Assembly (NCBI GenBank): GCA_964476725.1
Contig: CAYZBZ010000002.1
Coordinates: 1 to 56,057 of the forward strand
DNA length: 56,057 nucleotides
Source: an uncultured Vicinamibacterales bacterium
Lineage (GTDB): Bacteria; Acidobacteriota; Vicinamibacteria; Vicinamibacterales; 2-12-FULL-66-21
Reading direction: 5' to 3'
Below, in pieces: positions 2,608-8,312 of this stretch. The first letter of the stretch is position 1; each line of letters begins with the position of its first letter. A program made the position numbers and the translations under genes. The notes under the pieces were generated by a model that was given only the letters and a program-made list of their open reading frames with translations, was not told the origin of the DNA and did not search any database.

Positions 2608-3489
2608 TTACAGCGCTCGCACCGCGGCCACGATGGCGTCGGCATTCCCGCTGACCACGTAGGCGATGCGGCCATCGCCGCCGATCACGTAGACGATGGA
2701 CGGGTGCGAGATGTCGCCGGTCTTCTCGTTGCGCACGCGCGGCACGCGCCAGCCGTTCAGCGTGCGCTCGACCTCCTCGGGCGCGCCCGAGAGAACGTGC
2801 GCATCTCCATCCAGGCCCCACTGCTTCGCGATCGACGCGAGGCGGCTTGGCGTGTCGCGCCACGGGTCCAGGGTCACGATGAGCACGCGGGGAGGATCGC
2901 TGCCGAGCCGGCGTCGAGCTGCCAGCACGTCAGCGACGATGAGCGGGCACACGGTCTGACAATGCGCGAATGCGAACGCGACAAGCACCGGCCGCCCGCG
3001 GGACGACTCCAGCGTGACCTCCCGTCCAGTCTGATCGGTGAGCGCCAGGGGAGGCGCCACGTCATTCACGCGCGTCAGCTGCGCTGCTGCGATCTCTCCC
3101 GGACTGGTTGGGAACGGCTCCAGGCCGGCGGTGCGCACGCGGGCAACAACGCTCCCGAGGCCGGCGAGGAGCAGGGCCGAGACGACGCCGACTGCCAGCT
3201 GGCCAGCGACCCGCGCCGTGGCCAGCGCCATCCCCTCTCGCAGGTCGGTTCCCCACACCCCGGCCAACAGCGCGATCATGCCGGCGGGTTGACCGACGAG
3301 CAGCACCCAGCCGCCCGCGTTCGGCAGGCGATCGGCCGTCGACCCGAAGCACACCTCACGCGTCCGCAGGAGCCACTCCGGCGCGGCACTGCCGACCGGC
3401 CAGAGCGCGAGCGCCCACCACGACGCGGTGATCACGACGATCGCCCCGAGCGCGGTTACGGCGGCCCACGCGCGCCCGGCCGCCATCAC
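2608..3489 (-). CDS. SCO/SenC copper chaperone with N-terminal membrane domain
   Basis: CQTVCP (CxxxC), TLDPWRDTP and distal His (ISHPS); overlaps the subunit I stop. Confidence 0.9.
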   Translation of the reverse strand: MMAAGRAWAAVTALGAIVVITASWWALALWPVGSAAPEWLLRTREVCFGSTADRLPNAGGWVLLVGQPAGMIALLAGVWGTDLREGMALATARVAGQLAVGVVSALLLAGLGSVVARVRTAGLEPFPTSPGEIAAAQLTRVNDVAPPLALTDQTGREVTLESSRGRPVLVAFAFAHCQTVCPLIVADVLAARRRLGSDPPRVLIVTLDPWRDTPSRLASIAKQWGLDGDAHVLSGAPEEVERTLNGWRVPRVRNEKTGDISHPSIVYVIGGDGRIAYVVSGNADAIVAAVRAL

Positions 3490-5258
3490 CCGATCCTCCA
3501 GAGGACCGACAGGATCTTCCAGTTCACGAAGAAGTAGACGACGAACGCCGCGAGGAACACGAACGCCAGTACGATCGTACCGGGGGCGGGTCCCATGGCG
3601 CCGGGCGCGTCACGGTGCAGTGCGGCGTTGCGGGCGTCGACATCCGGCGCGTGCACGGGCGGATGCGTGAGGCCGGCCGGCACGCCTGCCATCGCCACGC
3701 CCTTGAGGATTTCGCCGAGGGGCTCGCCGAAGAAGACGGACTTGACCGCGATCGCGACGAACAGGAAGGCGCCCGTGGCGGCGATCAGCCCGCCAAACGC
3801 CATGACCGCCAGGATGAGATCGACGATCGGATTGAATTGCACATCGAACGGCGCCTGGCTGAAGGTGATGTCCCAGTGGCGCCGGGGCACGCCGAAGCTG
3901 CCCGCGAAGGTCATCGACAGCGTGAAGATCAGCATGCCGCCGGCGAAGAGATACGGCTGGATCCTGGCGCCCTTCCAGAACGCCACCTTCTTCTGGAAGA
4001 TCAGGGGAATGAGGTAGTACGTGACGCCCATGAACGCCATGGCGGTGCCGCTCACCACCGTTGCATGGAAGTGTCCTGGAACACGCAACGTGTTGTGCAC
4101 CATGATATTGATCTGCTCGGTGCCGATCGTCACCCCGGTGATCCCGCCGACGAAGCCGAAGACGACGAGCGAGAACACGAGAGAGCTGAACCCCGGGTCG
4201 CCCCATGGCGCGCGGCGCAGCCAGTCGAACATGCCGTTGGTGAACCCGCGCAGGCGCATCCCGAGCTCCATCCCCGCCGGCACGGTGAAGCCGTGAATCA
4301 TGGAGGCGAGCACGGCCATGTACATGAAGTAGCTCGTGTTCACGACCTTCCAGGCGGGCCCCATGCCGGGGTCGACCAGCAGGTGGTGCGCCGACGCCAT
4401 CGAGATGAACAGGATGTACAGCACGAACGCCGATCGGCTGATCTTCTCGTTGAGCACGACCGATCCGATGGTGAGCGCGCCGAGCATGTACCAGATGGAC
4501 ACCATGGCGGCGACATTGATCTGCTGCGACGAGTGGCCAAGCCCCCACCAGATCATCCGGTAGATCTGCGGATCCACCTCCATCAACCCAAGCGACCAGA
4601 GGTAGGTCGGAATGTAGATGGCTGCACCGTGGACGAGGGTGATGACGGCGATGATCGCGGCCGTCATCGCGCCGTAGACCACCAGGGGCAGAGATCCCTC
4701 GTAAGTCCTCTCCCGCTTGGCCACGACGAGGTTCGCGAAGAAGACGCCGACCGTCACCAGGGCGCCGACCGCGAAGAAGATCACGCCCAGGTAGAAGTTC
4801 GGATCGGCCCGCAGGGGAACGTACGACGTGAAGAGGACATCGGCCCGGCCGGACCACATCATCGCCTCGACCATCAGCGCGCCGGCGAGCATCAGCGCGA
4901 AGGCGGCCCAGGAGGTCTTCGGCGCGCTGTTGCGCGCGTTGAGGAGCACCGTGCCGGCGAAGAACAGCACTGCCATCTCGAAGAAGAGGATGAAGAAGAT
5001 CAGCATGCTCATGCCGTGCACGCCGAGGATGCGGTAGAACCAGACAGCCGGGAGCAGGTGCACGGCCTGCCAGCGCGTCAGCACCAGCAGCACCGCGGCG
5101 ATGGCGCCGACGAGCAGCGACACCACCGAGGCCACGGCGTGCACCTTGATCAGGCGCTCGGCGCCGAGGTCGATGCGATACCCGGTGGCCGGGCAGGTCC
5201 GGAAACCGGCGCCGGCGCGCGCCGGTGCGACATCGGAGTCGCCGACTGGAGTAGTCAT
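3486..5258 (-). CDS. Heme-copper oxidoreductase subunit I, B-family-derived, eNOR-like nitric oxide reductase
   Basis: Six His ligands (H81, H242, H291/H292, H396/H398). Helix VI reads WWGLGHSSQQ, with Gln246 at the cross-linked Tyr position. Confidence 0.85.
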   Translation of the reverse strand: MTTPVGDSDVAPARAGAGFRTCPATGYRIDLGAERLIKVHAVASVVSLLVGAIAAVLLVLTRWQAVHLLPAVWFYRILGVHGMSMLIFFILFFEMAVLFFAGTVLLNARNSAPKTSWAAFALMLAGALMVEAMMWSGRADVLFTSYVPLRADPNFYLGVIFFAVGALVTVGVFFANLVVAKRERTYEGSLPLVVYGAMTAAIIAVITLVHGAAIYIPTYLWSLGLMEVDPQIYRMIWWGLGHSSQQINVAAMVSIWYMLGALTIGSVVLNEKISRSAFVLYILFISMASAHHLLVDPGMGPAWKVVNTSYFMYMAVLASMIHGFTVPAGMELGMRLRGFTNGMFDWLRRAPWGDPGFSSLVFSLVVFGFVGGITGVTIGTEQINIMVHNTLRVPGHFHATVVSGTAMAFMGVTYYLIPLIFQKKVAFWKGARIQPYLFAGGMLIFTLSMTFAGSFGVPRRHWDITFSQAPFDVQFNPIVDLILAVMAFGGLIAATGAFLFVAIAVKSVFFGEPLGEILKGVAMAGVPAGLTHPPVHAPDVDARNAALHRDAPGAMGPAPGTIVLAFVFLAAFVVYFFVNWKILSVLWRIG

Positions 5259-5836
5259 TGGGTGGCTCCTGACTTCGCAGCGGAGAGCGGCGCGTCCTCG
5301 ACGATGACGCGCCCGACCATCATGTGGTGGCCGATGCCGCAGAACTCGTTGCAGATGATGCGGAAATCACCCGAGGCGTTCGGGGTCACCCGCAGGCCGT
5401 AGTCGTACCCGGGTACGACCTGGAAATTGACGTTGATCGGGTAGAGCGAGAATCCGTGGTTGACGTCGAGCGACGAGAGGTGGAGCGTGTACTGCGCGTT
5501 CTTCTGCAGCCTGACGATCGGGAACCACTGGAACGAGACCGCCGCCAGATAGACGTCGGAGCCCGGCGGCGGCGTCACGATTGGCATGCCCCGGTCGTCT
5601 CCTGTCTGGTACTGCTTGATGAACTCGCTGACCCGTGCCCCGAACGCCTGCGGGGTCGTGCGGCTCCGGATGCCGGACGGATTCTGCCCGCCCTTCCAGT
5701 GCCAGAGCGGCATCATGGCGAACAGCACCATGCACCACGCAAAGGCGATCCCGACCCAGACCTTCTCCGACTTGTGCGCGGGTTTCCACCAGGTGCCCTT
5801 GGGAGCGTCGAGCCCGGTATGCGTTTCAGTGTGCAT
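5255..5836 (-). CDS. CuA-containing heme-copper oxidoreductase subunit II
   Basis: One TM helix, DVNHGF, and CuA motif CNEFCGIGHHMM. Confidence 0.92.
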   Translation of the reverse strand: MHTETHTGLDAPKGTWWKPAHKSEKVWVGIAFAWCMVLFAMMPLWHWKGGQNPSGIRSRTTPQAFGARVSEFIKQYQTGDDRGMPIVTPPPGSDVYLAAVSFQWFPIVRLQKNAQYTLHLSSLDVNHGFSLYPINVNFQVVPGYDYGLRVTPNASGDFRIICNEFCGIGHHMMVGRVIVEDAPLSAAKSGATQ

Positions 5837-5845
5837 GGGGGAACC

Positions 5846-6016
5846 TCACGGCAGTGGACCAGCCGGGAGGCTCGTGATCTCCCAGAGGCCCCAACCGGTG
5901 TAAAGGACGAGCATGATCAGGAGACCAGCTCCGAGCAGGAGGAACACGTTGTCGAACAGGCGCTGGCCGAGCGGCACGAGCTCGTCGGGAACGGGTGCCT
6001 GAAGGCGCGTTTTCAT
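5846..6016 (-). CDS. Small single-TM protein (56 aa), first gene of the heme-copper operon
   Basis: Hand translation MKTRLQAPVPDELVPLGQRLFDNVFLLLGAGLLIMLVLYTGWGLWEITSLPAGPLP*; GGAG RBS; ends 9 nt before subunit II; absent from the ORF track. Confidence 0.75.
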   Translation of the reverse strand: MKTRLQAPVPDELVPLGQRLFDNVFLLLGAGLLIMLVLYTGWGLWEITSLPAGPLP

Positions 6017-6090
6017 GTGACTCCCTGCGCGGCAAAAGGGACCGGATCGCGCGACGGCCGCCAGTTTATGCCGCGGCCCGCTGGCGCGGG

Positions 6091-6106
6091 TATGATGGCC
6101 GTCATA
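6091..6106. promoter_or_regulatory. Palindrome TATGA-N6-TCATA, CRP/FNR-family-like box
   Basis: TATGATGGCCGTCATA in the 128-bp divergent intergenic region. Confidence 0.45.
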
Positions 6107-6144
6107 TCCGCAGCCGATGGGGTCGGCAAGAATTCACTCAGTTC

Positions 6145-7713
6145 ATGGCTGCCGTCCCACGCCCCTCCGAGCGACTGGCGCTCCGGCTGCTGACAACGGC
6201 GGATGCGCTATGTAACCGCCTGTACGAGCAGCGGTTCAATCCCCTGTACCAGAGCGGCACGATCGTCGTCGCCCTCAATCTCGTGCTGCTCGTCACGGGC
6301 CTCTGGCTCATCCTCTTCTACCGCGTCGGCGCGCCGTGGGAATCGGTGGCGCGCCTGACCGCCAATCCGTGGCTGGGCAATTGGGTGCGCGGGCTGCACC
6401 GCTACGCCAGCGATCTCGCCGTCATCGCGACGGCCGCCCACGCCTTCCGCATGTTCGCGCAGGGACGAAGCTGGGGCGCACGCGCGATGGCGTGGATGAC
6501 CGGGTGCCTTCTCCTGTTGCTGCTCTTCATCTGCGGGTGGACGGGGTATGTGATGGTGTGGGACACCTTCGGCGAGCACCTCGCCCGCGAAGGGGCACGG
6601 ATGCTCGACACCCTGCCGGTCCTCTCCGAGCCGACGAGCCGGGCCTTTACCGGCGAGCAGCCCGTGCCGACGGTGTTCTTCTTCCTGAACCTGTTCGCTC
6701 ACATCGGCATCCCGCTCGCCATGGGCGTGGTGTTCTGGCTCCACGTCAAGCGGCTCGCGCGGCCCGCCCTGCTGCCGCCGCGCCCGGTGATGTGGCTGGT
6801 CGTCTCCGCCCTGACCGCAACCGCCATCGTCTGGCCACTGGAGATGGCGCCGCAGGCAGACCCGTTCGTGCTGCCCGCGAACGTCCCGGCCGATCTCTTC
6901 TTCGCGTTCTGGATCCCGCTCGTACAGGCCCTGAGCGGTGGGCAGGCGCTGCTCGTCGCGACGGGCCTCGGGGTGGCGCTCGTCGCCGTGCCCTGGTTCA
7001 CCGCGCGTCGCGGCGCGGCCGCGCCGCCTCCATCGGTGGTCGAGGAAGACATCTGCGTGGGGTGCGTCCAGTGCTCGATCGATTGCCCGTATGGGGCGAT
7101 CACCATGTTCGAGCGCACCAGCCGCCGCTCGGATCTCGTGGCCCGTGTCGACCCTGACCTCTGCGTGAGCTGCGGTATCTGTGCCGGATCGTGTCCCCCG
7201 ATGGGCGTCGGCCCGCCCGGCCGGGCCGCACGCGATCAGATGGCTGCGGTGCGCGAGTTCCTCGCCGCACCTGGACGGGGCGCCGGCGAGATCGTCGTCA
7301 TCTGCTGCGATCACGGCGCCGGGGGGTTTGCCTCCGATGTGGCGGCGGCCGGTGGCGTGCCGTATCCGATCGACTGTGCCGGCAACCTGCACACCTCGGT
7401 CGTCGAGACCCTCCTGCGCGCGGGTGCCGGCGGCGTGCTGATTCTGGCCTGTCCGCAGCGCGACTGCTGGAATCGCGAGGGGCCGCGCTGGCTCGGCGAG
7501 CGCCTGTATGGCGGGCGCGAAGCCGAGCTGCAGCCCAGGGTCGAGCGCGCGCGGTTTCGGATTGTGAACGTCAACGCGCGCGAACGAGGACGCGCGATCG
7601 AGGCCCTGCGCGCGTTTGCCGCCGAGATCGCCGCCTTGGGCCCGCCGGCCGAAGCTGAGGCGCCGGAGGCAGAGGTCCAGTGCGAACCGGCGCTCGCCGA
7701 GAGGGACTCATGA
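6145..7713 (+). CDS. Cytochrome b / 2x[4Fe-4S] ferredoxin / MvhD(FlpD)-like fusion membrane protein
   Basis: Two H-x13-H pairs (GLHRY..AHAF; FAHIG..LHVK); CVGCVQCSIDCP; CVSCGICAGSCP; then CCDHG, CAGNL, ACPQRDCWNREG. Confidence 0.85.
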   Translation: MAAVPRPSERLALRLLTTADALCNRLYEQRFNPLYQSGTIVVALNLVLLVTGLWLILFYRVGAPWESVARLTANPWLGNWVRGLHRYASDLAVIATAAHAFRMFAQGRSWGARAMAWMTGCLLLLLLFICGWTGYVMVWDTFGEHLAREGARMLDTLPVLSEPTSRAFTGEQPVPTVFFFLNLFAHIGIPLAMGVVFWLHVKRLARPALLPPRPVMWLVVSALTATAIVWPLEMAPQADPFVLPANVPADLFFAFWIPLVQALSGGQALLVATGLGVALVAVPWFTARRGAAAPPPSVVEEDICVGCVQCSIDCPYGAITMFERTSRRSDLVARVDPDLCVSCGICAGSCPPMGVGPPGRAARDQMAAVREFLAAPGRGAGEIVVICCDHGAGGFASDVAAAGGVPYPIDCAGNLHTSVVETLLRAGAGGVLILACPQRDCWNREGPRWLGERLYGGREAELQPRVERARFRIVNVNARERGRAIEALRAFAAEIAALGPPAEAEAPEAEVQCEPALAERDS

Positions 7714-8312
7714 CGCCACGCGATCGCGCCGCCGGCATCGCGCTCGCCGCCGCCGTCATGGCTGGCCTCGTCTGGGCGTCGAACGCCCCGATGACTGCGA
7801 ATCGCTCCCCGGACGCCATGCTGCGGCTGGCGTGGAGTGCCCGCCCGGAGCGCATCGAGAAGTGCCGGCAGCAGAGCGAGGAGGAGCTGGCGCGGCTGTC
7901 GCCGCACATGCGCCAGCCGGTCGCCTGCGAGGGCACGACCGCGGAGTATCGACTGCAGGTGCGGCGCGAGGGCGCGCTCGTCGCGGAACGGGTCGTACGC
8001 GGGGGCGGCCTGCGGCGGGACCGCCGGCTCTACGTGTTCGAGGAGCTCCTGCTGCCGCCTGGCGAGGCTACAGTGGAGGTCAGGTTCGATCGCGTGGATT
8101 CCAGTGACCCGGGCTTGGCCGCCGATCGGGGCGATCACGAGAGAGCCGAACGCGGGGCGACGTTCAACCCGGCGCAACGCGGCGAGGTCCCGCCGCACCT
8201 GTCGCTCGCGCGGCGCCTCCGCTTCTCGTCACGCGAGGTGATTCTCGTGACCTATGATTCGGATCGGCAGGAGCTCGTCGCGGTGCAAGGCTCTCCACGC
8301 GCGACTCGATGA
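7710..8312 (+). CDS. Membrane-anchored hypothetical protein coupled to the cytochrome b fusion
   Basis: ATGA overlap with upstream stop; N-terminal hydrophobic helix; two Cys (EKCR...VACE). Confidence 0.7.
   Translation: MTPRDRAAGIALAAAVMAGLVWASNAPMTANRSPDAMLRLAWSARPERIEKCRQQSEEELARLSPHMRQPVACEGTTAEYRLQVRREGALVAERVVRGGGLRRDRRLYVFEELLLPPGEATVEVRFDRVDSSDPGLAADRGDHERAERGATFNPAQRGEVPPHLSLARRLRFSSREVILVTYDSDRQELVAVQGSPRATR

Follow-up and report, generated by a model that had tools for sequence, protein, structure and literature searches.

Introduction

NosR, the accessory protein of the N2O reductase NosZ, is thought to pass electrons to that enzyme or to keep it active, CcoG is the cupric reductase for assembly of the cbb3 oxidase, and MvhD normally hands electrons to or from the flavin-based bifurcating protein HdrA. 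Here we describe a gene pair with an architectural likeness to these systems, found in a stretch of 56,057 nucleotides (the window; GenBank assembly GCA_964476725.1, contig CAYZBZ010000002.1, positions 1 to 56,057) from an uncultured Vicinamibacterales bacterium of the phylum Acidobacteriota. The first gene (6145..7713, + strand) encodes a 522-amino acid fusion of a cytochrome b, a ferredoxin domain and an MvhD/FlpD domain, the second (7710..8312, + strand) encodes a membrane-anchored protein of 200 amino acids, termed P2, and the two lie divergent to an operon for a heme-copper oxidoreductase of the eNOR type.

As a class, eNOR is reported to be one of the most widespread nitric oxide (NO) reductases and a source of N2O, and the enzyme of R. 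marinus was reported to reduce NO and not O2 (PMC11214002). The class is defined by the replacement of a Tyr by a Gln (PMC8756737, section 2.7.1), and in the parts of these two papers at hand its natural electron donor and assembly factors are undescribed. Similar genes have been recorded before. A 2026 preprint on Ferrigenium (10.64898/2026.01.22.701106, section 6.5.2) reports that an eNOR operon includes two 'rather unusual' genes for cytochrome b-[Fe-S] proteins, whose products are present in the denitrifying proteome, and proposes a supercomplex and, for the paralog carrying FAD and NADH domains, a coupling of NO reduction to NAD+ reduction. Table A3 of PMC8756737 (2022) lists one protein with cytochrome b6, DMSOR-beta-like, FlpD and cytochrome c ('C1') domains, while the available portions of the main text of PMC11214002 mention no such fusion gene. 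A first-pass annotation, made from the letters of the window, had known of no characterisation of the pairing and had left its novelty to a search; full-text literature searches returned no functional or structural study of it, but similar genes had evidently been noticed in the preprint and in the 2022 table. The domains and their general logic are known, and the architecture, its fission, its near-universal coupling to this clade of eNOR across phyla and the P2 domain are undescribed.

Linkage of the fusion gene to eNOR-type genes

The first-pass annotation had proposed that the fusion, P2 and the four genes of the divergent operon form one system, and a gene-neighbourhood check in three data sets upheld this, the homologs staying linked to eNOR-type genes. 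All linkage was detected by tblastn with the window proteins as queries. Among 401 genomes of Acidobacteriota, the phylum of the window, seven gave a fusion match at E <= 1e-30, and the six that matched strongly all carried an eNOR-like subunit I on the same contig, within ~6 kb. The fusion was likewise present in 5/5 genomes of this sample with a full-length, strong subunit I (E < 1e-190). The seventh match (genome G139, locus L009; G139:C1:4317000-4335000) was an outlier, 26-29% identical, with no heme-copper oxidoreductase within ~8 kb, with interrupted frames (two in-frame TGA codons or a frame break) and with a second cytochrome b-like gene just upstream. Pseudogene, selenoprotein and member of a separate subfamily are all conceivable identities for it, and it may mark the boundary of the fusion family.

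Two further collections, each made up of the 80 most similar matches of a larger set, extended the comparison to close and to distant relatives. In the close set (80 genome loci at >=49% identity, from Acidobacteriota, Gemmatimonadota and a few others), the small open reading frame (ORF), subunit II, subunit I and SCO1 were found in divergent orientation in 58/59 loci with >=4.5 kb of upstream sequence, and P2 was present in all 74 loci with >=900 nucleotides downstream. The one exception among the 59, L085, comes from a genome with an eNOR-like subunit I at G686:C4:137476-139213, on the same-numbered contig and, going by the record coordinates, roughly 60 kb away. That subunit I is in two pieces in two frames (residues 16-167 and 172-590), which may reflect a frameshift or an assembly error. 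The distant set comprised 80 metagenome loci, 28-38% identical to the window fusion, in which the genes are arranged as a single co-directional operon; subunits I and II were present in 28 of the 29 loci with >=4.5 kb upstream, and SCO1 in 51 of the 55 with >=1.2 kb upstream. Locus L162 is an unexplained exception in this set.

The pairing was also read in both directions in 281 genomes of another phylum, that of a 'Myxococcales' metagenome-assembled genome (MAG). Thirty of these genomes carried an eNOR-like subunit I, all at E < 1e-189 and none between 1e-80 and 1e-189, and the fusion adjoined it in 30/30 (29 fetched loci and L059). Starting from the fusion, 33 genomes were found, namely those 30 and three in which the contig ends at or just upstream of the fusion gene; one of the three retains the 3' end of subunit I. 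The arrangement thus recurs in >130 loci, which places the pairing far beyond chance, and shows a near-obligate genomic partnership of the fusion with eNOR-type enzymes that accompanies these enzymes nearly one-to-one across at least three phyla. Luteitalea, Gemmatimonas and myxobacteria are among the names that the MAGs behind these loci bear.

Architecture of the fusion protein

The first-pass annotation had described one 522-amino acid chain joining a di-heme cytochrome b, two CxxCxxCxxxCP clusters and an MvhD-like set of Cys residues, and the ORF, its Pfam matches and its motifs bore out every part of this description. The assigned start, ATG at 6145, is backed by close homologs of 521-522 amino acids that cover 99-100% of the protein. 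The cytochrome b part (~6229-6999, + strand; helices A-F and two b hemes by Pfam and Foldseek) was recognised by Pfam Cytochrome_B at residues 29-201 (E 1.7e-12, above the curated cut-off), with PF00033 and PF13631 matched. It is followed by a 2x[4Fe-4S] ferredoxin domain (~7036-7200, + strand; Fer4_7 at residues 304-351, E 2.5e-9, above the curated cut-off) and by the MvhD/FlpD domain (~7288-7647, + strand; FlpD, PF02662, at residues 407-499, E 1.7e-10, 41.4 bits against a cut-off of 22.3). The NCBIfam models matched best were ExtP, a b-type cytochrome (E 1.7e-23), cytochrome b6 and, for HdrA2, its C-terminal part with ferredoxin and MvhD (E 1.1e-16), all scoring far below the family cut-offs, so that the fusion is not a member of these equivalogs. 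Sequence matches in the PDB were to cytochrome b6 (3.3e-14), to the ferredoxin domains of FwdF and HdrA, and to MvhD (2.4e-4 to 1.6e-3).

The fusion is a single-copy gene and the only source of FlpD matches in its own, 85%-complete genome; the surrounding sequence is GC-rich (about 65-73%), and the closest named homologs come from Vicinamibacteria MAGs. Current databases label such proteins 'hydrogenase iron-sulfur subunit' or 'cytochrome b'. The family is large, with >=2325 homologs among 8000 candidates scored in a 90%-clustered database and, in a 50%-clustered library, 2829 representatives at E <= 1e-3 and 396 at E <= 1e-30.

Across this family the putative cofactor ligands are strongly conserved. 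The two H-x13-H pairs (H85/H99 and H186/H200) and the eight Cys of the CxxCxxCxxxCP motifs (C304/307/310/314-P and C340/343/346/350-P) were each retained in 129-131 of 131 full-length representatives. By analogy with b6, we take H85 and H186 to be the ligands of the outer heme and H99 and H200 those of the inner one. The MvhD Cys, putative ligands of a [2Fe-2S] cluster, are kept almost as well (C388, C411 and C436 in 129/131 each, C441 in 108/131). This near-invariance of heme and Fe-S ligands argues for an electron-transfer role of the fusion. On the outer face W139 and D140 are kept in 128 and 129 of the 131 and D250, in an ef-like loop, in 122, a pattern that suggests a conserved pocket on the periplasmic side.

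An AlphaFold2 model of the fusion, built from a 14-row alignment with a predicted local distance difference test (pLDDT) score of 84, has six transmembrane helices (residues 37-57, 75-105, 111-138, 176-204, 213-229 and 265-285) followed by ferredoxin and MvhD folds. Foldseek aligned the model with full-length bc1 cytochrome b over ~285-290 columns at a root-mean-square deviation of 4-5 Å, and by this alignment helices E and F and the ef loop would be retained while G and H are missing; PF00032, the C-terminal part of cytochrome b, gave no match in the fusion. The first-pass annotation had called the protein Rieske-less and devoid of PEWY, and no PEWY string occurs in the translation; the model, however, still matches helices A-F including the ef-loop region, and leaves room for a remodelled Qo-like pocket. 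Since the helix number is even and the Fe-S domains must be cytoplasmic, both ends of the membrane domain would lie inside, with the Fe-S domains predicted to follow helix F in the cytoplasm. The P2 anchor would add one further helix and so place its beta-sandwich outside. Taken together, sequence and models predict a membrane-spanning redox chain. It comprises one [2Fe-2S] cluster, two [4Fe-4S] clusters and two bis-His b hemes, one stacked on the other through the membrane, and has a periplasmic domain at its end.

The likeness to bc1 raises the prospect of a quinol-oxidising, Rieske-less bc-like module with split electron flow, in which a remodelled Qo pocket would oxidise the quinol, one electron would pass by P2 or a cytochrome c to CuA and NO, and the other through the b hemes to the cytoplasmic Fe-S/MvhD part and a low-potential acceptor, so that NO reduction would drive reverse electron flow. 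Besides the alignment with bc1 cytochrome b through helices E and F, this scheme can draw on the near-invariant p-side W139-D140 and D250, on the usual link of MvhD to bifurcating HdrA together with the match of the ferredoxin and MvhD parts to the HdrA2 C-terminus (E 1.1e-16), and on the NO-to-NAD+ coupling that the preprint proposes for its paralog with FAD and NADH domains (10.64898/2026.01.22.701106). It is nevertheless a quite unlikely account of the module, drawn wholly by analogy: PEWY, a Rieske protein and helices G-H are lacking, P2 has no known high-potential cofactor site, the 14 diverse representatives of the fusion that were scanned contain no FAD or NAD domain, and the clusters encode no conserved cytoplasmic partner. 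Its most far-reaching form would be a novel type of Rieske-less cytochrome b complex that carries out quinone-based bifurcation, sends one quinol electron uphill in potential to NO via P2 or cytochrome c and CuA, and uses the other to reduce ferredoxin or NAD(P)+, so that NO respiration via eNOR directly powers reverse electron transport; in our estimate this form is highly unlikely.

P2 and its fused forms

P2 is predicted to consist of an N-terminal transmembrane anchor and a periplasmic beta-sandwich bearing the motif C52...H66-M67...C73. The translational coupling that the first-pass annotation had seen between the fusion and a two-Cys membrane-anchored protein is borne out by the ATGA junction, at which the fusion stop (TGA, 7711-7713) overlaps the P2 start (ATG, 7710), and the same 4-nucleotide overlap is found in 71/76 loci with ATG, GTG or TTG as the start codon. 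A programmed frameshift at this junction was considered and rejected, as the overlapping codon is always a valid start.

Of 150 family representatives, 101 are >=620 amino acids long and 78 have a C-terminal stretch of 130-200 residues that P2 matched. In a quick tree one sub-clade, nested among fused forms 650-750 amino acids long, took in most of the split forms (520-550 amino acids), and this nesting, with the conserved overlap, points to a single gene fission kept under translational coupling. By these sequence relationships P2 is the split-off C-terminal domain of the fusion family, and most lineages have the module as a single polypeptide, whereas that of the window has it split. The product in the window has exactly two Cys and one N-terminal transmembrane helix, as the first-pass annotation had it; among relatives the Cys pair is retained in 71/71 split forms and in only 74-75 of 104 fused forms (~72%), whereas the His-Met dyad H66-M67 is the more conserved, in 68-71 of 71 split and 89-90 of 104 fused forms.

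The fold of P2 was modelled well (pLDDT 90; transmembrane helix and beta-sandwich). No Pfam family matched it even at E <= 1, a Protein Atlas search led to unnamed clusters only, and Foldseek against the PDB gave nothing at E <= 0.001. A wide VIA-align search put the luminal beta-sandwich of HGSNAT first, at Z 7.7, followed by folds of the transthyretin-like and Ig-like kinds at Z values of 5-7, a generic range. The copper protein FtrA-P19 appeared as a structural match at a Foldseek E of only 0.045 and was not relied upon. A complex prediction for P2 residues 26-200 with the CuA domain of subunit II (residues 48-193) returned a score of 0.01 and a mark of 0.32, which amounts to no verdict.

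Four of the 150 representatives (P0243, P0247, P0248 and P0259), which form a sub-clade, carry a class I cytochrome c domain at the C-terminus, after the anchor and a degenerate beta-sandwich (Pfam PF00034, 20.5-32.5 bits, three above the cut-off). Their tails are without the Cys and His-Met motif of P2.

The eNOR-type operon

The catalytic subunit I (3486..5258, - strand; 590 amino acids, Pfam COX1 at E 7.8e-57) has six His ligands, for the low-spin heme, the high-spin heme and the active-site metal, in conserved motifs (H81, H242, H291, H292, H396 and H398). In an alignment with the ba3 oxidase of T. thermophilus (residues 67-495), G-H-P-I-V-Y of ba3 falls on G-H-S-S-Q-Q of the window protein, with the cross-linked Tyr237 opposite the second Gln of H-S-S-Q-Q. 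When the best high-scoring segment pair per locus was tallied, the motif GH-x-[SA]-QQ was present in 136/136 of the fusion-linked subunit I matches that cover it. The heme-copper oxidoreductase of the window is thus of the eNOR type by the sequence signature read in these comparisons.

Subunit II (5255..5836, - strand) comprises one transmembrane helix and a CuA cupredoxin domain, recognised by NCBIfam CoxB and NosZ C-terminal models, and in 61 sequences its CuA ligands (H127, C162, C166, H170 and M173) are conserved. The operon opens with a small conserved ORF (5846..6016, - strand; seen in translation and by tblastn) for a single-helix protein of 56 amino acids with the motif GQRLFDN-FLLL...YTGWGLWEI...LP. 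It lies directly upstream of subunit II in 75 of 86 loci (L004-L089; tblastn E < 1e-3) and belongs to no Pfam family. The protein may be a small subunit of the eNOR described here, comparable in size to subunit IIa of ba3.

The operon closes with a SCO1/SenC copper chaperone (2608..3489, - strand; Pfam SCO1-SenC at residues 148-274, E 3.7e-24) that contains a CxxxC motif. Its N-terminal membrane extension of ~130 amino acids has three predicted hydrophobic stretches and a conserved VCFGS motif, and is seen in L035 too; SCO proteins are usually single-anchored, and by comparison a three-stretch extension is unusual. Four-nucleotide overlaps join subunit II to subunit I and subunit I to SCO1, which starts with GTG. 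Among relatives, identity is 68-80% for subunit I, 49-60% for the fusion and 30-45% for P2, and SCO1 diverges much like the latter two.

The two transcription units face away from each other across 128 nucleotides between start codons (6017..6144), in keeping with the shared divergent promoter claimed for them earlier. This region, between the fusion start and the 56-amino acid ORF, holds an inverted repeat (6028-6037/6066-6075; 10 nucleotides, 90% complementary, 28-nucleotide spacer). The first-pass annotation had seen no adjacent Rieske, cytochrome c, hydrogenase or HdrA gene, and the ORFs scanned from 1 to 17.4 kb of the window included none of these and no other Hdr gene. Outside the cluster the neighbours are unrelated housekeeping genes (glucoamylase-like, GFO/IDH/MocA and RidA-like genes). 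Elsewhere in the genome, CtaA is encoded on another contig, and as candidate denitrification partners only weak matches turned up, to NirK-like proteins (76 bits against a cut-off of 296) and to cytochrome d1.

Conserved neighbours and related clusters

Reference ORFs were compared against 80 + 80 + 29 related loci, and the conserved sets contained only the module genes, a COX1-like paralog termed X, an Rrf2-family regulator, CtaA and CtaB, in a comparison that used no Rieske-specific model. The regulator gene lies between the divergent operons in 36/59 close loci and upstream in 14/29 distant ones (for example L035:9456-9869 and L076:9454-9960, both - strand), and there is no Rrf2 gene in the 128-nucleotide spacer of the window. 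These regulators have the motif C-x6-C-x5-C-x2-H, with IscR, RirA and NsrR as best NCBIfam matches, all below the equivalog cut-offs.

The presence of Rrf2 regulators would also suit a quinol-to-cytoplasm module of the DsrMK/HdrDE/QmoC kind that passes quinol electrons on to an Fe-S acceptor in the cytoplasm and acts apart from eNOR catalysis, with P2 as a structural lid and the linkage reflecting co-regulation under NO stress or redox control. Its domain logic, a di-heme membrane protein joined to cytoplasmic Fe-S domains, does resemble that of DsrMK, HdrDE and QmoC as established. We judge this analogy most unlikely to describe the module, as it leaves unexplained both the near 1:1 physical linkage with eNOR across phyla and the conserved periplasmic domain with its replacement or extension by a cytochrome c.

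The gene X opens the operons of the fused clade and is absent from the clade of the window. It encodes a divergent COX1-like paralog of ~480-550 amino acids (L156:3016-4593, L102:2924-4489, L138:2679-4319, L165:2621-4054 and L097:3079-4572, all + strand) that matched PF00115 in 3/5 sequences at only E 1e-9 to 1e-14. Of the heme ligands X retains three His, two for the low-spin heme and one for the high-spin heme, and of the metal ligands the first His (GHVLQ-); the HH pair of the active-site metal is replaced. It may be the 'eNOR scaffold protein' of the Ferrigenium preprint (10.64898/2026.01.22.701106).

Genes for heme synthesis also recur. CtaB (heme O synthase) directly follows the fusion in 30/48 metagenome loci and 15/27 other-phylum loci of the fused clade, and CtaA (heme A synthase) directly follows P2 in 9/69 close loci of the split clade. 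The co-directional operons run from the structural genes through SCO1 and the fusion to CtaB, with DUF420 in L102 and L156.

A different combination was met in three loci of the window's own phylum (L207, L208 and L209, from G391, G268 and G134). They encode B-family-like oxygen reductases with the Tyr present (GHPLTYFW), and directly downstream of subunit I a plain cytochrome b-like ORF 27-29% identical to residues 44-271 of the fusion. L209, the one of the three that was annotated, has multiheme cytochrome c genes after this ORF. A cytochrome b beside a B-type heme-copper oxidoreductase may be the older theme from which the fusion arose.

The company of SCO1, CtaB and CtaA makes a maturation or maintenance factor the main rival to an electron-input role. 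In such a scheme a CcoG/NosR-like reductase would take cytoplasmic electrons outward for the cofactors of eNOR: it could reduce Cu(II) to Cu(I) for SCO1 and CuA, reduce the cysteines of SCO1 or CuA, provide Fe(II) for the non-heme site or feed heme A synthase with its outward-facing active site, and P2 (Cys-x13-His-Met-x5-Cys) would be a metal- or thiol-handling domain. The fusion does lie between SCO1 and CtaB, with CtaA after P2 in some close loci; its architecture would parallel that of CcoG (a membrane domain, a cytoplasmic 2x[4Fe-4S] part and an anchored periplasmic beta-sandwich); P2 has His-Met and Cys side chains of the kind that typically bind Cu(I); and the fusion and P2 diverge faster than subunit I, much as SCO1 does. 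In addition, both sites of eNOR are reported to use cofactors of the heme A type, and CtaA to be encoded in many eNOR operons (PMC11214002). A maturation role is harder to reconcile with the strict linkage to eNOR and not to other CuA or heme A oxidases, the Tyr-type B-family clusters having only the plain cytochrome b-like gene. The cytochrome c extension of four representatives is typical of a CuA donor and not a chaperone feature, the Cys pair of P2 is missing in ~28% of fused forms, and no Pfam match to the NosR, FixG or PCuAC families was obtained. On balance we regard this alternative, although the strongest, as rather unlikely.

A proposed role for the module

From the domains, ligands and linkage described above, the fusion and P2 are probably a dedicated electron-transfer accessory of a large clade of eNOR-type NO reductases. 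More specifically, we put forward with some hesitation that they may form a transmembrane conduit from cytoplasmic Fe-S centres, and possibly from quinol, to the periplasmic side of the enzyme. The cytoplasmic Fe-S chain would be the point of entry for electrons, with quinol at a remodelled Qo-like pocket as a possible second source; the electrons would cross the membrane via the two b hemes, and would leave at the periplasmic face via P2 or, in some lineages, via the appended class I cytochrome c, with the CuA subunit of eNOR as acceptor. The module would then be eNOR's own device for electron input or reductive activation, as NosR is for N2O reductase.

We favour an electron-input or activation module because the classic donor to CuA is a cytochrome c and such a domain can form the periplasmic end, because the cluster encodes no other donor, because in at least one related cluster, for an oxygen reductase, a cytochrome b-like gene stands with genes for multiheme cytochromes c, and because the linkage is specific to eNOR. 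The NO context points the same way, with the Gln-for-Tyr signature in subunit I and regulators resembling IscR and NsrR nearby. Several points weigh against this proposal. The fold searches with P2 revealed no recognisable redox-cofactor fold, and it has no heme c motif. The R. marinus enzyme was purified in a form active with artificial donors, so that the module is dispensable for catalysis in vitro (PMC11214002). The siting among the biogenesis genes SCO1, CtaB and CtaA fits a maturation role at least as well, an outward flow of cytoplasmic electrons would dissipate membrane potential, and the loci behind the linkage counts are kin of one another picked by similarity, so that these counts overstate independence.

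The module is a concrete candidate for the missing donor or assembly factor of eNOR. If its electrons come from the cytoplasm or quinol, current assumptions on the energy gained in this denitrification step would change; if it serves maturation, heterologous expression of eNOR may require it. In both cases it improves the set of genomic markers for eNOR-type denitrifiers in soils and sediments.

Comparison with known systems

Among the closest described genes are those of the eNOR operon of Ferrigenium straubiae, where a cytochrome b and [Fe-S] protein is encoded with sco1 and heme O synthase (10.64898/2026.01.22.701106). The likeness is one of description and not of compared sequences; the parts of the preprint at hand mention neither an MvhD nor a P2-like domain, and the FAD and NADH domains of one Ferrigenium paralog do not occur in the 14 fusion representatives scanned.

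With the cytochrome b of bc1 and b6f complexes the fusion shares the four heme His at b6-like spacing and the fold of helices A-F. It differs in having no Rieske partner, no PEWY and neither helices G-H nor a subunit IV, and after helix F the chain enters cytoplasmic Fe-S domains on the n side, where bc complexes have their Qi site. The cytoplasmic part in turn resembles the Mvh:Hdr system, since its paired ferredoxin and MvhD domains can be aligned to the HdrA2 C-terminus and to MvhD chains of known structure. In the fusion, however, this unit is tethered to a membrane cytochrome b, and no [NiFe] hydrogenase MvhAG or HdrA gene is adjacent to it, no genome-wide search for HdrA or MvhA having been made.

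CcoG (FixG/RdxA) offers a parallel in overall plan, since it is anchored in the membrane, holds two [4Fe-4S] clusters on the cytoplasmic side and ends in an anchored Ig-like domain in the periplasm; its gene lies with those for a heme-copper enzyme and the assembly of that enzyme. CcoG lacks both a heme b domain and an MvhD domain, its partner is cbb3 and not eNOR, and FixG_C gave no Pfam match in P2. NosR, with its relatives NapH and NosH, shares with the module a polytopic membrane part, a cytoplasmic 2x[4Fe-4S] domain, a periplasmic domain and a gene location with a CuA denitrification enzyme, NosZ. The membrane part of NosR is a NapH-type CX3CP domain where the fusion has a di-heme cytochrome b, its periplasmic domain binds FMN where P2 is an unnamed beta-sandwich, and the MvhD domain is extra in the fusion. 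No NosR family was among the Pfam and NCBIfam matches listed for the fusion; Pfam recognised in it only cytochrome b, Fer4 and FlpD families, and none of NapH-like, FMN_bind or FixG_C. By analogy, then, the module resembles NosR and CcoG in function and architecture only.

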